This document shows positions 1 through 12,156 of a DNA stretch of 12,156 nucleotides, one piece after another. The notes beneath the pieces were generated by a model, which was given only the letters and a program-made list of their open reading frames with translations, was not told where the DNA came from and made no database searches. The stretch's first letter is position 1, and each line of letters begins with the position of its first letter. Source of the stretch: a virus (taxonomy: Duplodnaviria > Heunggongvirae > Uroviricota > Caudoviricetes); the IMG/VR virus record IMGVR_UViG_2802429247_000008, positions 1-12,156 of that record, one strand, 5' to 3'. The position numbers were made by a program, and so were the translations under genes.

Positions 1-531
1 TGAGGTGAGCATATCACCTCTGTTCAGGTGGCCAAATTCAGTGTGCCACTTCAGATTGAACGCAGCAGCAAGACGGCTGGCGGTATAGTTAATCCCCTCG
101 TTGCGTGCTTCCGCACGTACTTCAGCCAGGAAAGCATCGGTGGCTGGGGTTTGCGGCATCCTTCCGTCTATTGCGCAGATATACGCATCAGATAGTTCAT
201 CCTGCTCGCCATCAAACACGTAGCAACTCTGTACGATAAATTTATTCAGCCCCGCATTCTCCGCCGCAAGCGCAGCAAGATTAGTCTCCAGCTCTGCAAT
301 GCGTTTGCTTTGGGCTTCCCGTTCATCCAGCAGTGCCAGCACGGTAGCCGGATTGGCTGCTGCTATGAATCGCTTATTGGCGCGATTATCTGGTCCTGAG
401 CATGATGCTATGTAGTAATTTGCGTTCAGTCCGGCATCAGCAATTACCCCATAGTAATCATCAGAACACCATTCGCCAGGGGTTGCATTTTCTGCCGCCA
501 TTCGCAGTGCCTGGTAATTAATGTTGCTCAC
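1..531 (-). CDS. Phage protein, tentatively ead/Ea22-like; first 177 codons only, gene continues past the window start
   Basis: Minus-strand frame is open from 531 down to position 1. GTG at 529-531 is preceded by AGGAGG (revcomp of 538-543) with a 6-nt spacer; an in-frame ATG at 499-501 is an alternative start. Product begins VSNINYQALRMAAENATPGEW and has a coiled-coil-like stretch (DEREAQSKRIAELETNLAALAAENAGL). Family assignment is from memory and unverified. Confidence 0.55.
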   Translation of the reverse strand, partial: MSNINYQALRMAAENATPGEWCSDDYYGVIADAGLNANYYIASCSGPDNRANKRFIAAANPATVLALLDEREAQSKRIAELETNLAALAAENAGLNKFIVQSCYVFDGEQDELSDAYICAIDGRMPQTPATDAFLAEVRAEARNEGINYTASRLAAAFNLKWHTEFGHLNRGDMLTS

Positions 532-823
532 TGGTTGCCTCCTGAAAAATAACTGCATGCCCCAGCTTCTCCGCCAGTGCCAGTTCTGCCTTAGCGCCTG
601 CTGACCGCTGCCAGCCTTTCAGCATGTAAATCGCATCCACACAACGAATCATTGCCATGCAAATATCCATGTAGTGTGGCTGTGTCAGTCCGTCCGGAAG
701 TACTGCCGGACTTAAGACGGTATGCCCTTCCCGTTTCAGTTCCTCTTCCGCCTTGTGGAACGCCTCACGGTTGAAATTTTTATACCCGGTCATCGGACCA
801 GCGATATAAACCCTCACCCTCAC
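518..823 (-). CDS. DUF4406-family protein (nucleoside 2-deoxyribosyltransferase-like fold)
   Basis: 101-aa ORF. N-terminal YIAGPMTG motif followed by EGHTVLSP and a C-terminal LKGWQRSAGAKAELALA segment, the pattern I associate with DUF4406/Rcl-like proteins of lambdoid prophages. GTG start at 821-823 with AGGAGG 7 nt upstream; overlaps the stop of the upstream gene (GTGA). Confidence 0.78.
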   Translation of the reverse strand: MRVRVYIAGPMTGYKNFNREAFHKAEEELKREGHTVLSPAVLPDGLTQPHYMDICMAMIRCVDAIYMLKGWQRSAGAKAELALAEKLGHAVIFQEATSEQH

Positions 824-1236
824 GCCATCACCTCCTGAAAATTACCCTGATAAAACGCCAGCACACGCTGCATAACCTTGCTTTTCCGGCACTCGCGACA
901 GATTATGTTCTGACGTCTGTCGTAGCGGCGTATCTCTCCATCTGGTAATGAATAAATCAGGTCAGGATCGCTCTTTTTCTTCACCGCCGCTTTCGACATC
1001 TTTTCGATGGCTTTTATCCAGTCCTTACGCGCCTGCGCTGAAGGGAATATTCCATACCCTGAACCATATACAACACCACTGGCTACCAGCTCTTTCGTCA
1101 GAACTTCTATCAGATGTCTCGTCGCCCCAATTTCATTTTCCAGTTGTTTACGCGTTTTCCGACCATCTCTGCGTACCAGTTCCACAATGCGCGCCTTCAC
1201 TTCTTCCCGCTGTTCGGAAGTAAAAACTTTTGCCAC
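820..1236 (-). CDS. Hypothetical phage protein, 138 aa, possible winged-helix N-terminus
   Basis: Clean 138-aa ORF with GTG start at 1234-1236 and AGGAGG 4 nt upstream (revcomp of 1241-1246). Its stop overlaps the start of the DUF4406 gene. I recognise no family; the basic N-terminal third and a single CRECR motif are the only features. Confidence 0.7.
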   Translation of the reverse strand: MAKVFTSEQREEVKARIVELVRRDGRKTRKQLENEIGATRHLIEVLTKELVASGVVYGSGYGIFPSAQARKDWIKAIEKMSKAAVKKKSDPDLIYSLPDGEIRRYDRRQNIICRECRKSKVMQRVLAFYQGNFQEVMA

Positions 1237-1276
1237 AAGTCCTCCTGAAAATTACCTCATGATCTGAAATAAACAC

Positions 1277-2224
1277 TTACCCCCTGAAGCCCGGCGGAAT
1301 TTCGGTATCCGGTTCAGAAATGTGATTCACGCAACGCTGTACAGGCGAACGCCCCAGACGAATAACCAGCTCATCCCATTTTTCGCGAAGCTTTGACGGG
1401 CTCATGACGTTTTTTACCCAGAATGGATCCCGCTGTACCCGACCAAACATTTCGCAAATTTGTCTGTGAGTTCTGCCATCCAGCATCCGCATTGTGCGCA
1501 CATCATTGGCCCATGCAGTCCAGTTGGGTTCTTTCGGTCGCATGATTTCGCCATCATCGCTGGCAGCCTGCTCGTAAAGACTCACGATTCGTCCCCAGAT
1601 CCACTGCGCACACGCTAAATCTTCCTGGCTACCCCACTGGCGTTTTTTCGCACTGAACACAACCGCGTCAGGGTGTCGGGTTAAAAAATCCTGTTCAGCC
1701 GTCTGCGAGTCCGGTTGCGAAGCTTCCGGACGAAAAGATCTTTTATCTGACGGATCAGGTTTTAATACTGACGGATCGGGGCCAACCATCGCCCCCCTAT
1801 CCGGCTGTTTTTTATCAATGGTTGATCCATCAAAATTTGAGGGGTCAACCGTTGAGGGGGCAATATTTGACGGGTCATTTTTTGCCTGGCTAATTTTTCT
1901 TTTCGGTTTATATGCCTCACGCGCCGCCGCTGCTGCTGCTTCTAGTTTTTCCACATTAAGACGGTAGATATTGCTTACATTACGCCCACCGACCTTACGT
2001 TCCTCCTTCGTCAGCCAGCCGTTCTTTTCCAGTTCCGCTATCGCAGCTTTAACCGTTGATTCACTCTTTGCCCCAATCTGACGACGAATGGTCTCCACTG
2101 CAGGCCATGACACACCTTCGTCATTGCTGTAATCTGCAAGGCGAGCCATTACTGCCACCCTGGATAAGATCATGCCGGTGAAGGCGCACCCTTCCCAGAC
2201 AAGACCATGAAGCTTGCTGCTCAT
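1277..2224 (-). CDS. Phage replication initiator (HTH N-terminal domain, low-complexity linker, DnaT-like C-terminal region)
   Basis: 315-aa ORF with ATG at 2222-2224 and GGAG 7 nt upstream. N-terminus (GMILSRVAVMARLADYSNDEGVSWPAVETIRRQIGAKSESTVKAAIAELEKNGWL) resembles HTH replication/replisome-organiser proteins. An Ala-run and Pro/Ser/Asp-rich linker is encoded by the iteron-like DNA repeats. Position after the cro-like and ydaT genes matches an O-like role. Confidence 0.8.
   Translation of the reverse strand: MSSKLHGLVWEGCAFTGMILSRVAVMARLADYSNDEGVSWPAVETIRRQIGAKSESTVKAAIAELEKNGWLTKEERKVGGRNVSNIYRLNVEKLEAAAAAAREAYKPKRKISQAKNDPSNIAPSTVDPSNFDGSTIDKKQPDRGAMVGPDPSVLKPDPSDKRSFRPEASQPDSQTAEQDFLTRHPDAVVFSAKKRQWGSQEDLACAQWIWGRIVSLYEQAASDDGEIMRPKEPNWTAWANDVRTMRMLDGRTHRQICEMFGRVQRDPFWVKNVMSPSKLREKWDELVIRLGRSPVQRCVNHISEPDTEIPPGFRG
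1757..1886. repeat. Iteron-like repeats inside the replication gene (candidate origin of replication)
   Basis: Five direct copies of a 10-bp motif: TGACGGATCA 1757-1766, TGACGGATCG 1778-1787, TGAGGGGTCA 1847-1856, TGAGGGGGCA 1862-1871, TGACGGGTCA 1877-1886, at spacings of 21, 69, 15 and 15 bp. One inverted copy (TGATCCATCA, 1832-1841). An AT-rich stretch follows at 1887-1920. The layout is analogous to lambda ori inside gene O. Confidence 0.55.
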
Positions 2225-2247
2225 AAAAAACTCCGAACACCGTGCTT

Positions 2248-2673
2248 TTAGTGCATCACCAGGGCATTTCCCGCCGGACCACCACGATTCATCTGATTGA
2301 AACCAGCGATCGCCACTGCGACAAAATCATCAGCGTCTCTCACCAGTCGTTCCCGCGTCTCCACCAGCTCCCGAAAATAGGCTGAACTGTGGCTGCGCAT
2401 TCGGGCCACCAGCAGAGGTGGCATTGCTTTTTCGATCGCTGGTAACAACGCCTGAATTTTTTTAACCGCATCAGGGGTGTCTTTCTCCACCCAGCGGAAA
2501 ATCTTCTGAGTATTGCGAGCCAGGGCTTCTGGGTGTGAATCGTCGTACAGTTCCGGAAACGTCATACCCAGTTCAAAATAAGCCCGGGTTATTTCAGCTG
2601 CCGGAACTTTTTCTCCGTCCGGATGCGCCCAGGCATTCATCGCCATGCGGATGTGCTCATGCTTGATTTTCAT
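2248..2673 (-). CDS. ydaT: YdaT-family protein (CII-like regulator, historically annotated as a toxin)
   Basis: 141-aa ORF starting MKIKHEHI, directly downstream of and overlapping (ATGA at 2670-2673) the cro-like gene. Size, N-terminus and position match Rac YdaT. Confidence 0.72.
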   Translation of the reverse strand: MKIKHEHIRMAMNAWAHPDGEKVPAAEITRAYFELGMTFPELYDDSHPEALARNTQKIFRWVEKDTPDAVKKIQALLPAIEKAMPPLLVARMRSHSSAYFRELVETRERLVRDADDFVAVAIAGFNQMNRGGPAGNALVMH

Positions 2674-2897
2674 GAATCACTCTTCCTTTCGCTCTGAGTG
2701 GTATCCTTCTTTTTGTAAAGCTCTGGGTTCAAAGATAATTTTCCCTTGGAGTATGCAGCAGCTTCCGCAGCTCTCCCTTTCGGAACTATTTCACCGGGGC
2801 GCTTACGCCACATGTAAATAGCTTCGCGGGTTATCCCATAAAAATCAGCGACCCTCTGAACAGAGCCAAAAAACTGAACAAGTTCATCAACTCGCAT
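2670..2897 (-). CDS. Cro-like HTH regulator (YdaS family)
   Basis: 75-aa ORF transcribed divergently from the repressor. HTH-like segment VADFYGITREAIYMWRKRPGEIVP. ATG at 2895-2897 with AGGAGG 6 nt upstream (revcomp of 2904-2909). Confidence 0.7.
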   Translation of the reverse strand: MRVDELVQFFGSVQRVADFYGITREAIYMWRKRPGEIVPKGRAAEAAAYSKGKLSLNPELYKKKDTTQSERKSDS

Positions 2898-2993
2898 TTC
2901 ACCCTCCTAAAATCTAAGTATTTTTAGATTACAGGATAATTTTTTTTAGGTCAATGCGATCTAAAATAATTTATATTCAACTCGCGGGAGAAA
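2898..2993. promoter_or_regulatory. Divergent promoter/operator region between the cro-like and repressor genes (OR-like)
   Basis: 20-bp near-palindrome AATCTAAGTATTTTTAGATT at 2911-2930 and a further ATCTAAAAT half-site at 2959-2967. Candidate minus-strand promoter: -35 TTGACC (revcomp of 2949-2954), 17-bp spacer, -10 TAATCT (revcomp of 2926-2931) overlapping the palindrome. Candidate plus-strand -10 TATATT at 2972-2977 for the repressor. Confidence 0.55.
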
Positions 2994-3641
2994 ATGATGG
3001 AAAGCCTTGGCATCAGGCTTAAGAAACTCAGAAAAGATAAGGGACTCACCCAAGTAGAACTGGGTAAGCTTTCAGGCGTGACTGGGGTTACTATAGGGTA
3101 CTGGGAGAAAGATCTAAACGAACCCGGCAGCAAAGCTCTAAGTAAGTTAGCCCAAGCATTAGGAACTACTGAGTCCTATCTCCTGTATGGAGTATCGTCT
3201 CCTGAACTATCTTTTGTGCAGAGCAATCCAGGCACCAAGATCCCCTACTTTTCGTGGGGTGACGCGATTTCTTTCCTAATCTTAGAAGGAGAGAAAACAA
3301 TGGGAAATGTCGATAGGATCACCACATTCTTTGATGTAGTGGAAGGTGATTTTGCCGTTTCAATGCCTGATGACACTATGCATAACCCCTCAGGGTCGCC
3401 AAGTATCCCAGTTGGTGCCACTGTGATCCTAAGACCAGGAGAAAGTTATAAAAATGGCAGTATCGTCGCTGTAATAGTTCCAGATCCTCTTACAAATGAA
3501 CCGTCTATGACTATAAAAAAATTAGTTATTGATGGAAAACTTGTGTATTTAAGCCCTCTCAATCCGCGCTATCAATCATCCTTGCTTACGCCAGAGTGTA
3601 AAATTGTTGCCGTAGCAAAAGGTGTACAGTTCAACCTATAA
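2994..3641 (+). CDS. cI/LexA-like prophage repressor (N-terminal XRE HTH, C-terminal S24 peptidase domain)
   Basis: 215 aa. HTH at LTQVELGKLSGVTGVTIGYWEKDLNEP. C-terminal VEGDFAVSMPDD (Ser of the catalytic dyad) and MTIKKLVIDGKLVYLSPLNPRY (Lys of the dyad), closely resembling lambda cI [22 protein letters not shown]. Two tandem ATGs at 2994 and 2997. Confidence 0.85.
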   Translation: MMESLGIRLKKLRKDKGLTQVELGKLSGVTGVTIGYWEKDLNEPGSKALSKLAQALGTTESYLLYGVSSPELSFVQSNPGTKIPYFSWGDAISFLILEGEKTMGNVDRITTFFDVVEGDFAVSMPDDTMHNPSGSPSIPVGATVILRPGESYKNGSIVAVIVPDPLTNEPSMTIKKLVIDGKLVYLSPLNPRYQSSLLTPECKIVAVAKGVQFNL

Positions 3642-3663
3642 CCCTGCCATGTTCTTGAACTTA

Positions 3664-3690
3664 AGGTCGGTTATGCCGACCTTTTTTTTA
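3664..3690 (+). terminator. Rho-independent terminator downstream of the repressor gene
   Basis: Stem GGTCGG (3665-3670) and CCGACC (3676-3681) around a 5-nt loop, followed immediately by an 8-T run (3682-3689). Confidence 0.7.
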
Positions 3691-3708
3691 AATTAATTTA
3701 GATTCCTC

Positions 3709-3737
3709 TTGACTATAAAACTAAATACTTTTAGATT
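3709..3737 (+). promoter_or_regulatory. pL-like promoter with overlapping operator-like site (OL-like)
   Basis: -35 TTGACT (3709-3714), 17-bp spacer, -10 TAGATT (3732-3737). The 20-mer AAACTAAATACTTTTAGATT (3718-3737) matches the OR palindrome at 17 of 20 positions. An extra TTAGATT at 3698-3704. Confidence 0.45.
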
Positions 3738-3908
3738 TATTGCATGCCAACCCATCCCGTCCCCACAGAATGCAGGGCAATACTTCGAGTTACCAGGCAG
3801 TGGTCAGGGGTTAAGTAGCCAGCCCGAGGCGTATGAACATGACGGCGGGATTCAAATTTTGCAGTGCAGCAGTTAGTTCCGCCACCCGGCGTTAAGGGGA
3901 GAGATAAG

Positions 3909-4043
3909 ATGGTGCATTACGAAGTAGTTCAGTATTTGATGGATTGTTGCGGTATCACTTACAACCAGGCTGTGCAGGCTTTACGCAGCAACGACTGGGA
4001 TCTCTGGCAGGCAGAAGTCGCTATACGTAGCAACAAGATGTGA
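3909..4043 (+). CDS. ydaG: YdaG-like small protein (44 aa)
   Basis: ATG at 3909 preceded by GGGGAGAG. Product MVHYEVVQYLMDCCGITYNQAVQALRSNDWDLWQAEVAIRSNKM. Size and position (between repressor and ydaF/sieB) match Rac ydaG. Below the length cutoff of the supplied ORF track. Confidence 0.62.
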   Translation: MVHYEVVQYLMDCCGITYNQAVQALRSNDWDLWQAEVAIRSNKM

Positions 4044-4053
4044 GATTCGCAAA

Positions 4054-4209
4054 ATGCAAAAAATCGACCTCGGCAACAACGAATCCCTGGTGTGCGGCGT
4101 GTTCCCCAACCAGGATGGAACGTTCACTGCCATGACGTATACCAAAAGCAAAACATTTAAAACCGAAACTGGTGCGCGCCGATGGTTGGAGAAGCACACA
4201 GTAAGCTAA
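4054..4209 (+). CDS. ydaF: YdaF-like small protein (DUF1391, 51 aa)
   Basis: ATG at 4054. Product MQKIDLGNNESLVCGVFPNQDGTFTAMTYTKSKTFKTETGARRWLEKHTVS. Matches my recollection of Rac YdaF in size and position. Its stop overlaps the sieB stop convergently. Confidence 0.65.
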   Translation: MQKIDLGNNESLVCGVFPNQDGTFTAMTYTKSKTFKTETGARRWLEKHTVS

Positions 4210-4694
4210 CGATTAAAACGTCTACTCCTGCTGTTCCAGAATAACTTCATAAAATGGGAGTATTTTTCGGTGACGAGATAATAAGAACAGTTTGCGCTAT
4301 CACTCTGATGTTGAATGATGCCCTTCCGTTCTAATTTTTTCATAACCGGGTTACGGCAAGGAGAAGTGATAATAAGATTTCCTGTTTTAAGGAAATCTTT
4401 AAATACAGCGATTTCTTTCTCAGATAAACGAAGCAATACTCGTTGCTCTGGTAGTAATGAATAATGCTTTTGAATATGTGCTCGCAATCTTGAGAAGGAA
4501 ATGGCGACCACGAAAGAAAAGGCAAAAACGATAATCTGAAAGAGCCAAGATATTTCAGTATAAGCATTGAATGCGACAGTAAACTCTTTCGGTATCAGCC
4601 AGAGAGTGAGACCAAAAATGATAATCGTATACATAAGTCTTTCGAGTGGCTCGTTAGCAAAAAGTTTCAACAATGGAGTAAATACATCCAACAT
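4206..4694 (-). CDS. sieB: Superinfection exclusion protein B
   Basis: 162-aa product from ATG at 4692-4694 (MLDVFTPLLKLFANEPLERLMYTIIIFGLTLWLIP...), with hydrophobic membrane segments. The supplied ORF extends 41 codons further upstream to 4817, but that extension looks non-coding. Confidence 0.8.
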   Translation of the reverse strand: MLDVFTPLLKLFANEPLERLMYTIIIFGLTLWLIPKEFTVAFNAYTEISWLFQIIVFAFSFVVAISFSRLRAHIQKHYSLLPEQRVLLRLSEKEIAVFKDFLKTGNLIITSPCRNPVMKKLERKGIIQHQSDSANCSYYLVTEKYSHFMKLFWNSRSRRFNR

Positions 4695-4912
4695 ATCAAT
4701 AACTCTCAACTGTAAGGGTATTGAAATGTTAACACAAGCTCTCGCTGTAGGGGTATAGCCGAGACCACCGAAGCCCGGAGGTGGTGAAATAAAACCGGGC
4801 ACAACACGAAGGCGCATTTCCGATATCCATAAAGAGTCGGTCTTGTCTGTTAAATTTAAATGGTGGGAGTGCGCCTCCGGTTGTAAATAACGACATTGCT
4901 GTGTGTAGTCCT

Positions 4913-4960
4913 GGCGGCATCAGTTTTTTTCTTGAAGTTCGGCTGATGTCCGCCCTTTTT
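4913..4960 (+). terminator. Terminator-like hairpin plus T-run in the sieB/kilR divergent intergenic region
   Basis: Stem GGCGGCATCAG (4913-4923) pairs with CTGATG(T)CCGCC (4943-4954) with one bulge, followed by CTTTTT (4955-4960). The 19-nt loop is large for an intrinsic terminator, so confidence is low. Confidence 0.3.
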
Positions 4961-5135
4961 AAAGTGAATTTTGTGATGCGGTGAATGCGGCTAAGCGCAC
5001 GTGGCACAGTTAAAAGTCATGTTAGTCCTTATTGGTTTGGGTGGGAAAGCCGACTGTAATTGTTAACTGGTTGCAGTCACCTGGAGGCACCAGGCACCGC
5101 ATCAACAAAGTTCATTTGTAAAAATGGAGATAATT

Positions 5136-5357
5136 ATGATTGCACATCACTTCGGAACTGATGAAATACCACGTCAGTGTGTGACTCCTGGCGATTATGT
5201 TCTTCATGAAGGCCGGACATATATTGCCTCGGCAAACAATATTAAAAAGCGAAAACTATATATTCGTAACCTGACCACAAAAACATGCATTACTGACTGC
5301 ATGATTAAAGTTTTCCTCGGTCGTGATGGTTTACCTGTAAAGGCGGAATCATGGTGA
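5136..5357 (+). CDS. kilR: KilR-like killing / cell-division inhibitor protein (73 aa)
   Basis: ATG at 5136 with GGAG 6 nt upstream; the supplied ORF starts 4 codons earlier at 5124 with no SD. Product [35 protein letters not shown].... Position between sieB and ydaE matches Rac kilR. Sequence identity is from memory only. Confidence 0.6.
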
Positions 5358-5527
5358 TGACTAAGAAAATAAAATGTGCTTACCACCTTTGCAATAAAGG
5401 GGTTGAAGAAAGCAAAAGCATTAAAAGACCACTTCATTTCATGCGTGGAGTTATACCAACGACGGAAATGAAAAAATATTGTAGTGAAATCTGTGCCGAA
5501 AAAGACAAGATGGCACACGAACTTTAA
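5357..5527 (+). CDS. ydaE: YdaE-like small Cys-rich (zinc-binding) protein, 56 aa
   Basis: ATG at 5357 overlaps the kilR stop (ATGA). Product [56 protein letters not shown] carries C-x4-C ... C-x3-C. Below the ORF-track length cutoff. Confidence 0.62.
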   Translation: MTKKIKCAYHLCNKGVEESKSIKRPLHFMRGVIPTTEMKKYCSEICAEKDKMAHEL

Positions 5528-5601
5528 TTAACTGACTATGCGAAACTGAATTCATGCCAGCAATGGCAGGGATTCGCTCAACCTTAATTAAGGAGAAAAA
5601 C

Positions 5602-5877
5602 ATGATTACTAATTATGAAACCACTATTGTAACTACTGATGACATTGTTCACGAGGTTAATCTGGAAGGAAAGCGTATTGGCTACGTGATTAAAACAGAA
5701 AATAAAGAAACCCCATTCACTGTAGTTGATATCGACGGTCCATCAGGCAACGTTAAAACACTTCACGAAGGTGTCAAAAAAATGAGCCTGGTGCATATCG
5801 GAAAGAATCTGCCCACAGAAAAAAAAGCCGAATTTCTGGCAACTCTGATTGCAATGAAATTAAAAGGTGAAATCTGA
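5602..5877 (+). CDS. racC: RacC-like protein (91 aa)
   Basis: ATG at 5602 with AGGAG 6 nt upstream; the supplied ORF starts at 5554 with no SD. Product MITNYETTIVTTDDIVHEVNLEGKRIGYVIKTENKETPF.... Lies immediately upstream of recE, as in Rac. Confidence 0.6.
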   Translation: MITNYETTIVTTDDIVHEVNLEGKRIGYVIKTENKETPFTVVDIDGPSGNVKTLHEGVKKMSLVHIGKNLPTEKKAEFLATLIAMKLKGEI

Positions 5878-5882
5878 AAGAA

Positions 5883-5907
5883 ATAGCCTGCGTATGGCGC
5901 AGGCTAT
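5883..5907. repeat. Perfect 10-bp inverted repeat between racC and recE
   Basis: ATAGCCTGCG (5883-5892) and CGCAGGCTAT (5898-5907) around a 5-nt loop. No downstream T-run on the plus strand, so not a canonical intrinsic terminator. Confidence 0.5.
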
Positions 5908-5978
5908 GAACAGTGTGTATCCGGCAAGATCATTCACTGAACAAAACGAATTTTAATCTGAGTTGAGGTTAAAAAACA

Positions 5979-8900
5979 ATGAGCACAAAACCACTCTTCC
6001 TGTTACGGAAAGCGAAAAAATCATCCGGTGAACCTGACGTCGTCCTGTGGGCAAGCGACGATTTTGAATCGACCTGTGCCACTCTGGACTACCTGATCGT
6101 TAAGTCAGGTAAAAAACTGAGCAGCTATTTTAAAGCTGTTGCCACGAATTTTCCTGTCGTTAATGACCTGCCCCCTGAAGGTGAGATCGATTTTACCTGG
6201 AGTGAACGCTATCAACTCAGCAAAGACTCCATGACCTGGGAACTAAAATCGGGAGCAGCGCCAGACGACGTTCACCATCAGGAGAATGCTCAGGAAACCG
6301 AAGAACTGACGGGAGGGCAGGAAGAAAACACACTGGCAGACGCTCACGGGGATTGCCAGGATTGCGAAGTTTCTGTATCTACTTTGCGGTTCACACAGCG
6401 TCTTCTGCACATTTTTACCTATGCGGCCGGGGATCGGAAATACCTGCATCATGCCACCCGAGAACAACGCGAACACATTACTGCTCTTGAGATGGATCAG
6501 GAAAACAGCTATGTCCAGAATCTGCTGTTGGCCATACGCGGCATGGCAGAACCGACAACTCTGGATAATGCCGCCCTGCTCCGCCTGACTGATGCAATTA
6601 AGGGGGTTTTCTCTATCACGAAAAAACATCAGCCCTATGAATTTAAGAATTTCATTTCAGCCTGGCTGGATACCGAACACATTGATCGCGGTCTTCTGAC
6701 AAAAGAATGGCGAAAAGGGAATCGTGTTTCACGCATCACTCGCACGGCTTCCGGTGCTAATGCTGGCGGCGGGAACCTCACCGATCGCGGCGAAGGTTTC
6801 GTCCACGATCTGACGTCACTGGCGCGCGATGTAGCCACTGGCGTACTGGCCCGTTCAATGGACGTGGACATCTATAACCTTCATCCGGCACACGCTAAAC
6901 GCATTGAGGAAATTATCGCTGAAAATAAACCGCCCTTTTCTGTTTTCCGCGACAAATTCATCACCATGCCTGGCGGGCTGGATTATTCACGCGCCATCGT
7001 GGTTGCGTCCGTGAAAGAAGCACCAATTGGGATCGAGGTCATCCCCGCGCACGTCACTGAATATCTGAACAAAGTACTGACTGAAACCGATCATGCCAAC
7101 CCTGATCCGGAAATCGTGGATATTGCCTGCGGTCGCTCCTCTGCCCCGATGCCGCAGCGTGTAACAGAAGAAGGAAAACAGGATGATGAAGAAAAACCGC
7201 AACCATCTGAAACAACGGCAGATGAACAGGGAGAGGCTGAAACAATGGAACCGGACGCAACTGAACATCATCAGGACACGCAGCCGCTGGATGCTCAGTC
7301 ACAGGTAAATTCTGTTGATGCGAAATATCAGGAACTGCGGGCAGAACTCCATGAAGCCCGGAAAAACATTCCATCAAAAAATCCTGTCGATGCCGATAAA
7401 TTGCTTGCTGCATCACGTGGTGAATTTGTTGACGGAATTAGCGACCCGAACGATCCGAAATGGGTTAAGGGGATCCAGACTCGCGATTCTGTGTACCAGA
7501 ACCAGCCAGAAACGGAAAAAACCAGCCCGGATGTGAAACAACCTGAGGCAGTAGTGCAACAGGAACCGGAAATAGTCTGCAATGCCTGCGGTCAGACTGG
7601 CGGAGATAACTGCCCTGACTGTGGGGCGGTGACGGGCGACGCAACATACCAGGAAACATTCGATGAAGAGAATCAGGTTGAAGCTAAGGAAAAAGATCCG
7701 GTGGAAATGGAAGGCGCTGAACATCCGCACAATGAGAATGCTGGCAGCGATCCGCATCGTGATTGCAGTGATGAAACTGGTGAAGCGTCAGCTCCTGTAG
7801 CAACTGAAATCATGTGGCCGTCATATTTCGAGCCTGGCCGCTATGAAAACCTCCCGAACGAGGTTTATCACTCCGCCAACGGAATAAGCAGCACGATGCT
7901 GAAGGATGCCCGTATCAGCCTGATGTATTACCACGGACGGCACATTGCCGGAACTATTCCGAACGAGGAAAGTGATGCACTGCTGCGTGGGCGGATCATT
8001 CACAGCTATGTTCTGGAAACGGATAAATTCGCTGATGAATATGCCATTCCGGTACCGGTTCCTGAATATGTGGTTACTACTTCTAGCGAACTGATCGCCA
8101 TCATTAAAAAACACAATGCCAGTCTGCCAGCACTGATGACACCAGAGCAGATGAAAGAGTGGATCGAAAGCTACAACAGCACTCTTATACAGCCACTGTC
8201 TGTAAGTGCCGGGGCCGAAGAAACAGGCATCCTTTACGGTTCGCTTCCGGTGGAATTTCGGCGTATTCCTGAGGGGGAAAAACACACAGCATCAGCAATG
8301 AAAGCCTGTATTAAAGAATACAACGCAAGCCTCCCTCCTCTGTTGAAAACCAGTGGAGCACGGGAGCAGCTTCTGGATCAAATTGAAACTGTAGACCCAG
8401 AACTGGCAAAAAAAGAACGTGCTAAATCTTTGCCTTACAACATCAGTGGCACAAAAGAGCAATTAACCGAAATCGCACGGAAAATTCGCCCGGAACTGGT
8501 GACACTGGAGGACTGGCAAAAACGCCAGCAAGAAGAAAATGCCGGGAAAACGTTTATCAGTCCGGAGATGTATGAACAGGCAAAAAATATTCACGCGGCA
8601 CTGCAAAACAATACCGATGCAGCAAGGCTACTCAACCACCCGGATCGCAAATCTGAAATCAGCTATTTCGGGTTTGATGAAGAAACCGGGCTGGAAATCA
8701 GGGTCCGTCCTGATATCGAAATCCGGCTGCCATACGAAAGCATTTGCGCTGACGTGAAGTCAGTCAGCCTCGGTTATGTGCGACAGGAACGACTTAAAGA
8801 TCGCCTGCACCGTGAAATTATTGAGCGTGATTATCACCTCAGCGCCGCAATGTATTGCGATGTGGCAAACCTGGACAAATTTTTCTGGATCTTCGTCAAC

Positions 8901-9101
8901 AAAGATGCTGGCTATCACTGGGTGGCAGTCGTGGAAGCCTCGCAGGAACTCCTGGAACTTGGTCGACAGGAATATCGCCGGACGCTACGCCAGATAAACG
9001 AAGCCCTGGAGACAAACAACTGGCCAGCACCGATTACCGAAAGTTATACCGACGAATTAAACGACTTTGATCTTCGTCGTCTTGAAGCACTGAGCATCTG
9101 A
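5979..9101 (+). CDS. recE: Exodeoxyribonuclease VIII (RecE-family 5'-3' dsDNA exonuclease), 1040 aa
   Basis: N-terminus [65 protein letters not shown] is the RecE start as I recall it. Long acidic linker. C-terminal PD-(D/E)xK-type motifs ([22 protein letters not shown]). SD GAGG upstream of ATG 5979. Confidence 0.88.
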
Positions 9102-9112
9102 GGAAGGACACA

Positions 9113-10165
9113 ATGAACGAATTAACTCAACAAGAAAATATTAACTCTAATGTTGCGGTTTTCAGCCCTCAGTCCCTGGCTGCAATTCAGACATTTTCCC
9201 AGGTAATGGCTTCCGGCATGGCTACTGTACCGGAACACCTCCGGGGAAATCCATCAGACTGCATGGCCATCACCATGCAGGCGATGCAGTGGCAAATGAA
9301 CCCTTACGCAGTAGCTCAGAAAACTTTCGTTGTGAATGGTGTGCTCGGATATGAAGCGCAACTGGTTAATGCCGTAATCAGTACTCGTGGGCCGCTAACC
9401 GGGCGTATTGAATATGACTGGTTCGGGCCGTGGGAAAAAATTATCGGGAAATTTGAAATCAGGAAGAGCGACAAAGGGAAAGAATATCGTGTACCTGGCT
9501 GGAAGCTGGCCGATGAAAACGGGATCGGTGTTCGTGTCCAGGCAACACTACGCGGCGAAAGTAAACCACGCGTACTGGAATTACTTCTGGCGCAGGCCAG
9601 AACACGTAACTCAACGCTATGGGCCGACGATCCTCGCCAGCAGCTTGCCTATCTAGCGCTGAAACGCTGGGCGCGCCTTTATTGCCCCGAAGTGATTCTT
9701 GGAGTGTACACCAGGGACGAACTGGACGAGCCACAGGAAAAAATCATTAATCCGGTTCAGGAACATAAAAACACTTCCGCTTGCCGCGCGGAACGTGAAA
9801 CAACAATTATTGAGCAGGATGCCGGGGAAAACTGGATCGATGCTTTCCGTGAACGTATTGAGCAGGCACAAAGCACCGGGGAAACAACAGCACTTCGCCA
9901 GGAAGTGGAAGATCATAAAAATACACTTGGCGCTCTCTATACGGAACTTAAAGGAAAAGTGGTTCAGCGTCATCACCGTCTCAATGCTATTGCCCGTATC
10001 GAGAAGATGATAAATGACCTACCTTCTTCAGGTGATCCAGAAGCAGAACAAAAATTTACTGCTCTGGAAAATACGCTGAATGCTGCCCGGCCACATCTGG
10101 GTGAATTATATGAGGCGTATAAAACGACACTGACAGATATGAAACCAGAATATATCGGCTCCTGA
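9113..10165 (+). CDS. Single-strand annealing protein of the RecT/Red-beta superfamily (Red-beta-like), 350 aa
   Basis: Immediately downstream of recE (11-nt gap, SD GAGGAAGGA). The segment WADDPRQQLAYLALKRWARLYCPEVILGVYTRDELDE resembles lambda Red-beta WQSHPKRMLRHKAMIQCARLAFGFAGIYDKDEAE. It does not resemble K-12 RecT as I remember it. Confidence 0.7.
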   Translation: MNELTQQENINSNVAVFSPQSLAAIQTFSQVMASGMATVPEHLRGNPSDCMAITMQAMQWQMNPYAVAQKTFVVNGVLGYEAQLVNAVISTRGPLTGRIEYDWFGPWEKIIGKFEIRKSDKGKEYRVPGWKLADENGIGVRVQATLRGESKPRVLELLLAQARTRNSTLWADDPRQQLAYLALKRWARLYCPEVILGVYTRDELDEPQEKIINPVQEHKNTSACRAERETTIIEQDAGENWIDAFRERIEQAQSTGETTALRQEVEDHKNTLGALYTELKGKVVQRHHRLNAIARIEKMINDLPSSGDPEAEQKFTALENTLNAARPHLGELYEAYKTTLTDMKPEYIGS

Positions 10166-10175
10166 TATTGACTTT

Positions 10176-10213
10176 GGCGGTGTAGCCTCACCGCCATCAC
10201 AAAATTTTATTTT
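10176..10213 (+). terminator. Hairpin with distal T-rich tract after the annealase gene (weak terminator or attenuator candidate)
   Basis: Stem GGCGGTG (10176-10182) and CACCGCC (10189-10195) around a 6-nt loop. The T-rich tract AAAATTTTATTTT starts 5 nt later, so it is not a textbook terminator. Confidence 0.3.
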
Positions 10214-10228
10214 ATGAGAGAAAAGACA

Positions 10229-10423
10229 ATGCGGTATGAAAAAGTCAAACCATGCCCTTTTTGTGGTTGTCCATCAGTAACGGTGAAAGCCATTTCAGGA
10301 TATTACCGCGCGAAGTGTAACGGATGCGAATCCCGAACCGGCTATGGTGGAAGTGAAAAAGAAGCACTCGAACGATGGAATAAACGAACCACTGGAAATA
10401 ATAATGGAGGTGTTCATGTATAA
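10229..10423 (+). CDS. ralR: Restriction alleviation protein (Lar/RalR family), 64 aa
   Basis: Product MRYEKVKPCPFCGCPSVTVKAISGYYRAKCNGCESRTGYGGSEKEALERWNKRT has the CPFCG ... CNGC zinc-ribbon typical of Lar. The supplied ORF starts 5 codons upstream at 10214; the ATG at 10229 is chosen by homology. Confidence 0.8.
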   Translation: MRYEKVKPCPFCGCPSVTVKAISGYYRAKCNGCESRTGYGGSEKEALERWNKRTTGNNNGGVHV

Positions 10424-10604
10424 AATTACCGCCACTATTGAAAAGGAAGGTGGCACTCCTACTAACTGGACAAGGTACTCAAAAACAAAATTAACCAAAT
10501 CAGAATGCGAAAAAATGCTCTCAGGTAAAAAAGAAGCAGGCGTTTCCAGAGAGCAGAAAGTAAAACTGATAAATTTTAATTGCGAGCAACTTCAGTCCTC
10601 GTGA
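10416..10604 (+). CDS. ydaC: YdaC-like protein (DUF1187), 62 aa
   Basis: ATG at 10416 with GGAGG 5 nt upstream; overlaps the ralR 3' end by 8 nt. Product MYKITATIEKEGGTPTNWTRYSKTKLTKSECEKMLSGKKEAGVSREQKVKLINFNCEQLQSS. The supplied ORF 10344-10604 carries an N-terminal extension I consider spurious. Confidence 0.62.
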   Translation: MYKITATIEKEGGTPTNWTRYSKTKLTKSECEKMLSGKKEAGVSREQKVKLINFNCEQLQSS

Positions 10605-10703
10605 ATTGCATTGTATTCAAATTAAAACTTCATAGCTGATTATTAATAATCAACATCGGGCGTCAATTTCAGTCTAACATTGGCGCCTGCCAGAGGTGAT
10701 GCG

Positions 10704-10919
10704 ATGGCACAAGTAATCTTTAATGAAGAGTGGATGGTTGAATACGGCCTGATGCTTCGCACTGGTCTGGGGGCCAGACAAATTGAAGCATACCGCCAGA
10801 ACTGTTGGGTGGAAGGCTTCCACTTCAAACGAGTATCTCCTTTAGGGAAGCCAGACAGTAAGCGAGGGATTATCTGGTACAACTATCCAAAGATAAATCA
10901 GTTTATCAAAGACTCATGA
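10704..10919 (+). CDS. xis: Excisionase-like protein (Rac YdaQ/XisR type), 71 aa
   Basis: ATG at 10704 with GAGGTG 4 nt upstream. Product [49 protein letters not shown].... Ends 1 nt before the integrase start. Confidence 0.72.
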
Positions 10920-10920
10920 T

Positions 10921-12156
10921 ATGTCTAAATTACCAACAGGTGTCGAGATTCGAGGTAAATACATTCGCATCTGGTTCATGTTTCGAGGAAAACGATGTCG
11001 GGAAACATTGAAAGGCTGGGAGGTTACTAACAGTAACATTAAAAAAGCCGGGAATTTAAGAGCGTTGATAGTTCATGAAATCAATTCCGGTGAATTTGAG
11101 TATTTAAGACGTTTCCCCCAGTCCAGCACTGGGGCAAAAATGGTGACAACGAGGGTCATAAAAACGTTCGGGGAGCTTTGTGATATCTGGACAAAAATTA
11201 AAGAGACAGAGTTAACAACAAACACAATGAAGAAAACGAAATCACAATTAAAAACACTCAGGATAATAATTTGTGAGAGTACCCCAATATCACATATTCG
11301 TTATAGCGATATCTTAAACTACCGGAATGAACTGCTGCATGGAGAAACGCTTTACCTGGATAATCCAAGATCCAACAAAAAAGGAAGAACCGTGCGCACA
11401 GTTGATAACTATATCGCCCTGCTCTGTTCGTTGTTACGTTTTGCGTATCAGTCGGGATTTATATCAACCAAACCATTTGAAGGAGTAAAAAAATTACAGC
11501 GAAACAGAATAAAGCCTGATCCGTTATCTAAAACAGAATTCAATGCATTAATGGAAAGTGAAAAAGGACAGAGCCAGAACTTGTGGAAATTTGCCGTTTA
11601 CTCCGGGCTTCGTCACGGGGAACTGGCTGCTCTGGCGTGGGAGGATGTGGATTTCGAGAAGGGAATTGTGAATGTCAGAAGAAACCTGACGATACTTGAT
11701 ATGTTCGGTCCCCCAAAAACAAATGCGGGGATTCGGACGGTAACACTACTGCGGCCTGCTATTGAAGCACTGAAGGAGCAATACAAACTAACCGGGCATC
11801 ATCGCAAAAGCGAAATCACTTTTTATCATCGGGAGTACGGCAGAACCGAAAAGCAAAAACTGCATTTTGTTTTCATGCCCAGGGTGTGTAACGGAAAACA
11901 GAAACCTTATTACTCGGTAAGCAGTCTGGGGGCGAGATGGAATGCAGCAGTAAAACGTGCTGGTATTCGCCGCCGTAATCCGTACCATACGCGGCATACT
12001 TTTGCCTGCTGGTTGTTGACGGCAGGAGCGAACCCGGCATTTATAGCCAGCCAGATGGGGCATGAAACTGCGCAGATGGTGTATGAAATTTACGGTATGT
12101 GGATTGATGACATGAACGACGAACAGGTAGCTATGTTGAATGCGCGGTTATCGTAG
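10921..12156 (+). CDS. intR: Tyrosine-family site-specific integrase (Rac IntR-like), 411 aa, complete
   Basis: C-terminal catalytic-domain motifs (LRHGELAALAWEDVDF; NPYHTRHTFACWLLTAGANPAFIASQMGHETAQMVYEIYGMW). ATG at 10921 sits 1 nt after the xis stop. The TAG stop is the final triplet of the window. Confidence 0.9.
   Translation: MSKLPTGVEIRGKYIRIWFMFRGKRCRETLKGWEVTNSNIKKAGNLRALIVHEINSGEFEYLRRFPQSSTGAKMVTTRVIKTFGELCDIWTKIKETELTTNTMKKTKSQLKTLRIIICESTPISHIRYSDILNYRNELLHGETLYLDNPRSNKKGRTVRTVDNYIALLCSLLRFAYQSGFISTKPFEGVKKLQRNRIKPDPLSKTEFNALMESEKGQSQNLWKFAVYSGLRHGELAALAWEDVDFEKGIVNVRRNLTILDMFGPPKTNAGIRTVTLLRPAIEALKEQYKLTGHHRKSEITFYHREYGRTEKQKLHFVFMPRVCNGKQKPYYSVSSLGARWNAAVKRAGIRRRNPYHTRHTFACWLLTAGANPAFIASQMGHETAQMVYEIYGMWIDDMNDEQVAMLNARLS

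Follow-up and report, generated by a model that had tools for sequence, protein, structure and literature searches.

The locus raises the question of what the genes directly behind the replication gene of a lambdoid prophage encode and whether they act together. The window, meaning the whole stretch of DNA analyzed here, comprises 12,156 nucleotides (positions 1 to 12,156 of the Caudoviricetes record IMGVR_UViG_2802429247_000008). Its gene content is Rac-like, with an intR-type integrase, an excisionase, Lar, RecT, RecE, SieB, cI, Cro, a YdaT-like protein and an O-like protein. We propose that positions 1-1236 are the start of a delayed-early, ren/nin-type accessory stretch in the P_R operon of a Rac-type lambdoid Escherichia prophage, an explanation to which, as a whole, we assign a probability of about 0.6. 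Lying on the minus strand, it would be transcribed behind cro, the YdaT/cII-like gene and the O-like gene. Its three mosaic modules would be independent of one another and linked by translational coupling, and each would have the same Shine-Dalgarno junction sequence ahead of it. The identities of the three genes and their reading as mosaic modules are highly probable. The features of this part of the window, in the order of transcription, are the following.

1277-2224, minus strand: O-like replication initiator, 315 aa, with an HTH_36 N-terminus (Pfam) and a DnaT-like C-terminal tail
1241-1252, minus strand: junction motif ATTTTCAGGAGG (Shine-Dalgarno), 5 nt upstream of the DUF977 start
820-1236, minus strand: DUF977/Ren-like protein (LygF in phage records), 138 aa, GTG start
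831-842, minus strand: junction motif ATTTTCAGGAGG, 8 nt upstream of the DUF4406 start and within the last DUF977 codons (NFQEV)
518-823, minus strand: DUF4406 protein, 101 aa, GTG start
538-549, minus strand: junction motif TTTTTCAGGAGG, with one mismatch, 7 nt upstream of the Ea22-like start and within the last DUF4406 codons (IFQEA)
1-531, minus strand: 5' part of an Ead/Ea22-like gene, GTG start at 531, with 177 codons visible and no stop, running off the window start

The arrangement of three minus-strand open reading frames with overlapping or tightly coupled starts behind the replication gene, as described in the original prediction, is borne out. A spacer of 40 nt separates the stop of the replication gene from the DUF977 start, the DUF977 and DUF4406 genes overlap by 4 nt (GTGA, 820-823), and the DUF4406 and Ea22-like genes overlap by 14 nt (518-531). 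No internal promoters or terminators of note were found within positions 1-1300. The replication gene encodes an O-like initiator of PHROG 391 (E 4e-113); its residues 296-315 give a weak NCBIfam DnaT match (E 0.0044) that lies far under the cutoff. The 12-nt junction motif is present in three copies against 0.09 expected, and other prophages carry it at the corresponding junctions. Breakpoints of homology to other prophages lie at the motif or within ~15 nt of it, at 819/837/848 by the DUF4406 junction and at 523/538 by the Ea22-like junction. The junction motif is also written TTTTCAGGAGG.

Two relatives carry the same trio. The lygF-rac19-ead genes of phage Rac-SA53 match it in content and order, with 87% DNA identity over 54-1245, and the DUF977-DUF4406-Ea22-like genes of E. 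coli RM8082 follow the same order with 99% identity over 518-1236. Unlike the window, both have other replication modules upstream (ydaU+ydaV+DUF1627, or DnaT-like+P), and the 3' part of their Ea22-like gene differs, and these differences illustrate mosaicism. No complete E. coli genome covers 80% or more of the window, a result compatible with a mosaic whose combination, not its genes, is new.

The coupled starts and the common Shine-Dalgarno motif could suggest a single system, in which a winged-helix regulator or antitoxin would work with an enzyme or toxin and with a coiled-coil partner. DUF977 and DUF4406 also lie side by side in 276 or more complete E. coli genomes, which points the same way. 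However, the genes assort freely. Of 80 viral contigs that carry a close relative of DUF4406, 25 have DUF977 as the gene upstream of it, 26 have an unrelated HTH gene (PHROG 323) there and 27 another gene; an Ea22-like gene follows DUF4406 in just two. Each of the first two genes also occurs without the other, DUF977 in UTI89 and DUF4406 in Sakai Sp6, for example. The DUF977 family is narrow, with 91 clusters, whereas DUF4406 spans phyla, and in the contexts examined outside the enterobacteria DUF4406 has no DUF977 neighbor. A functional DUF977-DUF4406 pair, or a three-gene system, was therefore rejected as largely refuted by the assortment data, and we regard a single system as very improbable. 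Each of the three genes is a mosaic module of its own, and they form no joint system.

The 138-aa product had been described at the outset as belonging to no nameable family, a statement that proved wrong. The protein matches Pfam DUF977 (PF06163) at 116.1 bits against a cutoff of 22.1, with residues 1-134 aligned to model positions 1-134 of 134, and it is called LygF in phage records. PHROG 142, labeled 'Ren-like exclusion protein', is matched by both the window protein (E 9.7e-42) and lambda Ren (E 1.6e-41). The two proteins also align directly over ~70 columns, by BLASTP with E 4e-7 and by hhalign with a probability of 93.7% and E 1.8e-7. Lambda Ren scores under the Pfam DUF977 threshold, and a BFVD fold search did not recover it. 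Judged by sequence, the 138-aa protein is a DUF977 member and a homologue of lambda Ren. The name 'LygF' is inherited solely from Salmonella Enteritidis genome announcements.

The DUF977 protein is built from an N-terminal winged helix-turn-helix, a long helix, a disordered linker and the C-terminal motif YDRxxNxICxECRxSxxMQRVLAFY. It has in common with lambda Ren the winged helix and the C-terminal motif N-x-[IV]-x-x-E-C-R-x-S-x-x-M-x-R-V-L-A-x-Y. The sites of the genes are also alike, directly downstream of the replication gene or genes in the rightward early operon; lambda ren lies between P and ninB, and a Ren-type gene directly follows the replication gene or genes in four further compared loci (L001, L002, L007 and L016). 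The two proteins differ in length, Ren having 96 aa and the DUF977 protein 138 aa with the added long helix and disordered linker. Unlike lambda, the prophage that carries the DUF977 gene in the window has sieB and no rexAB.

What this protein does can be approached through Ren. Ren-Rex exclusion, known from textbooks and from the PHROG label, is the sole genetic phenotype attached to the Ren family. In lambda, Ren is non-essential (PMC10695390). The best-conserved part of DUF977 is not the helix-turn-helix, which is generic and resembles those of ArsR, MarR and IscR repressors; it is the C-terminal peptide common to Ren, and this order of conservation suggests a protein partner. As the counterpart of Ren, the DUF977 protein would act near the replication complex, with its C-terminal peptide probably docking onto that partner, and by analogy with lambda it may spare the phage Rex/Sie-type exclusion. 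We consider such an anti-exclusion role possible, at somewhat below even odds. The protein might instead be a mere transcriptional regulator, or an accessory DNA-binding protein of the replication origin, with no role in exclusion. The generic repressor-like winged helix favors this alternative, as does a metagenomic relative (P0286) that bears the Ren-type C-terminal motif on a different N-terminal region, one that presumably resembles the N-terminus of a replisome organizer. The gene adjoins the replication gene, and Ren has been described as 'likely involved in DNA replication', in a study that also found a Rex-Ren interaction in two-hybrid assays (bioRxiv 10.1101/2021.04.19.439022). A regulator of this kind is nevertheless somewhat unlikely, since the strongest conservation lies outside its helix-turn-helix.

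The Ea22-like gene had been foreseen correctly as to family, but it is not complete, being cut by the window start. Its product matches Ead_Ea22 (PF13935) at 72.6 bits against a cutoff of 27 (E 6e-20), residues 2-94 aligning to model positions 1-94 of 139. The match is confined to the N-terminal ~95 aa, and the rest of the protein is mosaic. It is 75% identical to Rac-SA53 'ead' (225 aa); its first 82 aa are 95% identical to those of the RM8082 Ea22-like protein, beyond which the two diverge. The N-terminal region places it with lambda Ea22 and P22 Ead in PF13935, and its residues 1-78 align with residues 1-51 of lambda Ea22 only (E 3e-7). In contrast to the window gene, which lies in the rightward operon after the replication genes, lambda ea22 belongs to the leftward operon, where it is found in the exo-xis region. 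The visible 177 residues contain nothing equivalent to the C-terminal domain of lambda Ea22, which was solved by NMR (PMC10834534). Because only the N-terminal, coiled-coil part is common to the two proteins, no function can be transferred to the Ea22-like gene.

The DUF4406 protein had been assigned to its family, and to a fold related to nucleoside 2-deoxyribosyltransferase (NDT) and Rcl, and both assignments hold. Its match to PF14359 scores 128.4 bits against a cutoff of 22, with residues 4-93 aligned to model positions 2-91 of 91. The predicted structure (pLDDT 92) is a minimal four-strand N-(deoxy)ribosyltransferase-like domain, b1-a1-b2-a2-b3-a3-b4, with the flavodoxin-like alpha/beta fold common to the solved members (NDT, Rcl/DNPH1, MilB/BlsM and PA1492), and active-site residues align. 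The best PDB E-value is 0.0017. The superfamily was reached solely with a broader DUF4406 profile; single-protein phmmer and a narrow enterobacterial profile (hmmsearch and hhalign) gave nothing meaningful against PDB, Rcl and NDT. The protein scores 14.4 bits against Pfam Nuc_deoxyrib_tr (PF05014), under the cutoff of 28.8, and its best relative, KeAlii gp28, scores 27.6 bits.

Six residues are invariant across the family: Tyr6, Asn18, Ser74, Gly76, Ala77 and Glu80. Glu80, which is unchanged in 45 close and 15 distant members, opens the helix that follows strand 3 and aligns with the Glu residues of 2a0k, 7m5h, BlsM 5vto and Rcl (E93), which according to the literature are catalytic. Tyr6, at the end of strand 1, is aligned with the Tyr of NDT, Y13 of Rcl and the Phe of BlsM, and Ser74-x-Gly76 aligns with the phosphate-loop Ser of the superfamily enzymes (NDTs, Rcl/DNPH1 and BlsM). 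Tyr6, Ser74, Gly76 and Glu80 persist from E. coli prophages to actinophages. Deoxyribo-specific enzymes are reported to be marked by a Tyr instead of a Phe beside the catalytic Glu (PMC7308715).

Compared with the characterized enzymes of the superfamily, the DUF4406 protein is ~50 residues shorter and has neither strand 5 nor the C-terminal helices, and its sequence similarity to them is at the limit of detection. According to the predicted secondary structure it ends ~8 residues past strand 4, and its alignments to Rcl and the NDTs end at residues ~103-106 of those enzymes. It thus lacks the C-terminal segment that, in NDT (C-terminus) and Rcl (Ser117), comes from a neighboring subunit to complete the active site; in the nucleoside 2'-deoxyribosyltransferases (PF05014; 2a0k, 6evs and 1f8x), C-terminal residues bind the base in trans. 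The Asp of the Tyr-Asp-Glu triad, in helix 2 (Rcl D69/NDT D72), appears to be replaced or shifted. By hhalign, Rcl D69 pairs with Cys55, a residue that never varies within the enterobacterial clade; in distant members the same column holds Asp, and Asp53, two residues earlier, is nearly invariant.

DUF4406 is found in 517 of ~50,700 phage genomes, from phages of Proteobacteria to those of Actinobacteria. In 17 unrelated phages it lies amid replication and recombination genes, including those for polymerase, clamp, SSB, primase, helicase, exonuclease and RusA. The GenBank names of its relatives (dCMP deaminase, MazG and hydrolase) are unvalidated and contradict one another. Domain fusions were considered as a clue to function and discarded, the entries called 'deoxycytidylate deaminase', 'MazG' or 'hydrolase' being single-domain DUF4406 proteins with guessed names; two longer proteins, Alfacinha3 gp47 (334 aa) and phi2 gp06 (191 aa), contain no recognizable second Pfam domain. 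An association with DNA methyltransferases was likewise judged not compelling. A methyltransferase gene is adjacent or one gene away in ~3 of the 17 contexts (directly beside DUF4406 in Bock and Alfacinha3, one gene away in RHph_Y21), a Brachyspira prophage in the literature provides a further example, and none of eight further contexts has an adjacent methyltransferase. A literature search returned no functional paper on DUF4406, DUF977, DUF1937/PA1492 or LygF.

From the conserved residues and the predicted structure, we tentatively regard the DUF4406 protein as a putative 2'-deoxynucleoside/deoxynucleotide N-glycosidase or transferase, a reading we hold at only slightly less than even odds. 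With the Tyr and Glu of the catalytic center and the Rcl-like Ser-x-Gly loop in place, it would most likely cleave or transfer the N-glycosidic bond of a 2'-deoxynucleoside or a 2'-deoxynucleoside 5'-monophosphate, and would serve nucleotide salvage or pool sanitizing within the phage DNA-metabolism module. A non-catalytic protein, either a nucleotide-binding sponge or regulator or a structural pseudo-enzyme, would fit the reduction to four strands and ~95 residues, the loss of the segment that completes the active site, the Cys at the triad Asp position in the enterobacterial clade, and the fact that PA1492, the nearest solved relative, has never been reported active. That relative (PDB 1t1j) differs from the DUF4406 protein in being a bacterial chromosomal protein of Pfam DUF1937, with 18% identity. 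The invariance of Tyr6, the Ser-x-Gly loop and the nucleophile-equivalent Glu80 in very distant members is, however, typical of retained catalysis, and we consider a non-catalytic protein improbable. Residue invariance of this kind can also be explained by binding alone.

The enzyme might serve counter-defence rather than salvage, by destroying an immune signal derived from a nucleotide, or an alarm nucleotide, or by re-balancing a pool depleted by host defense. This is quite improbable. Searches of PADLOC-DB returned no match for the DUF4406 and Ea22-like proteins and only chance-level matches for DUF977 (E ~0.004-0.01 over ~30 residues), the literature searched contains no link from NDT-like phage proteins of this family to anti-defense, and a conserved partner or defense-island context is absent from the contexts examined. 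Moreover, as inferred from PMC7308715, the invariant Tyr predicts deoxyribose substrates, whereas the known signals (cADPR isomers, cyclic oligoribonucleotides and NAD+) are ribose-based. A bolder form of the N-glycosidase reading holds that the protein is a self-sufficient deoxynucleotide N-glycosidase of ~95 residues, carried in the replication modules of phages of many host phyla to remove an unwanted deoxynucleotide. Its targets may be modified dNMPs from degraded or methylated DNA, as for DNPH1, or a deoxynucleotide-based host immune signal. We regard this as a long shot; if true, no smaller active member of the N-(deoxy)ribosyltransferase superfamily would be known, and the protein would represent a new class of phage enzyme for nucleotide-pool control or counter-defense.

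The trio is real but ordinary: its members belong to known Pfam families and are catalogued in hundreds of E. coli genomes. As such the finding adds little, the genes being annotated at 87-99% identity in phage and E. coli records as the usual mosaic modules of lambdoid phages. The tie to lambda Ren gives DUF977, a mere domain of unknown function in RefSeq, a hypothesis (replication-associated, anti-exclusion) that applies to about one-third of E. coli genomes. Once established, the activity of DUF4406 would put hundreds of records right, and it might turn out to be that of a new minimal N-glycosidase.

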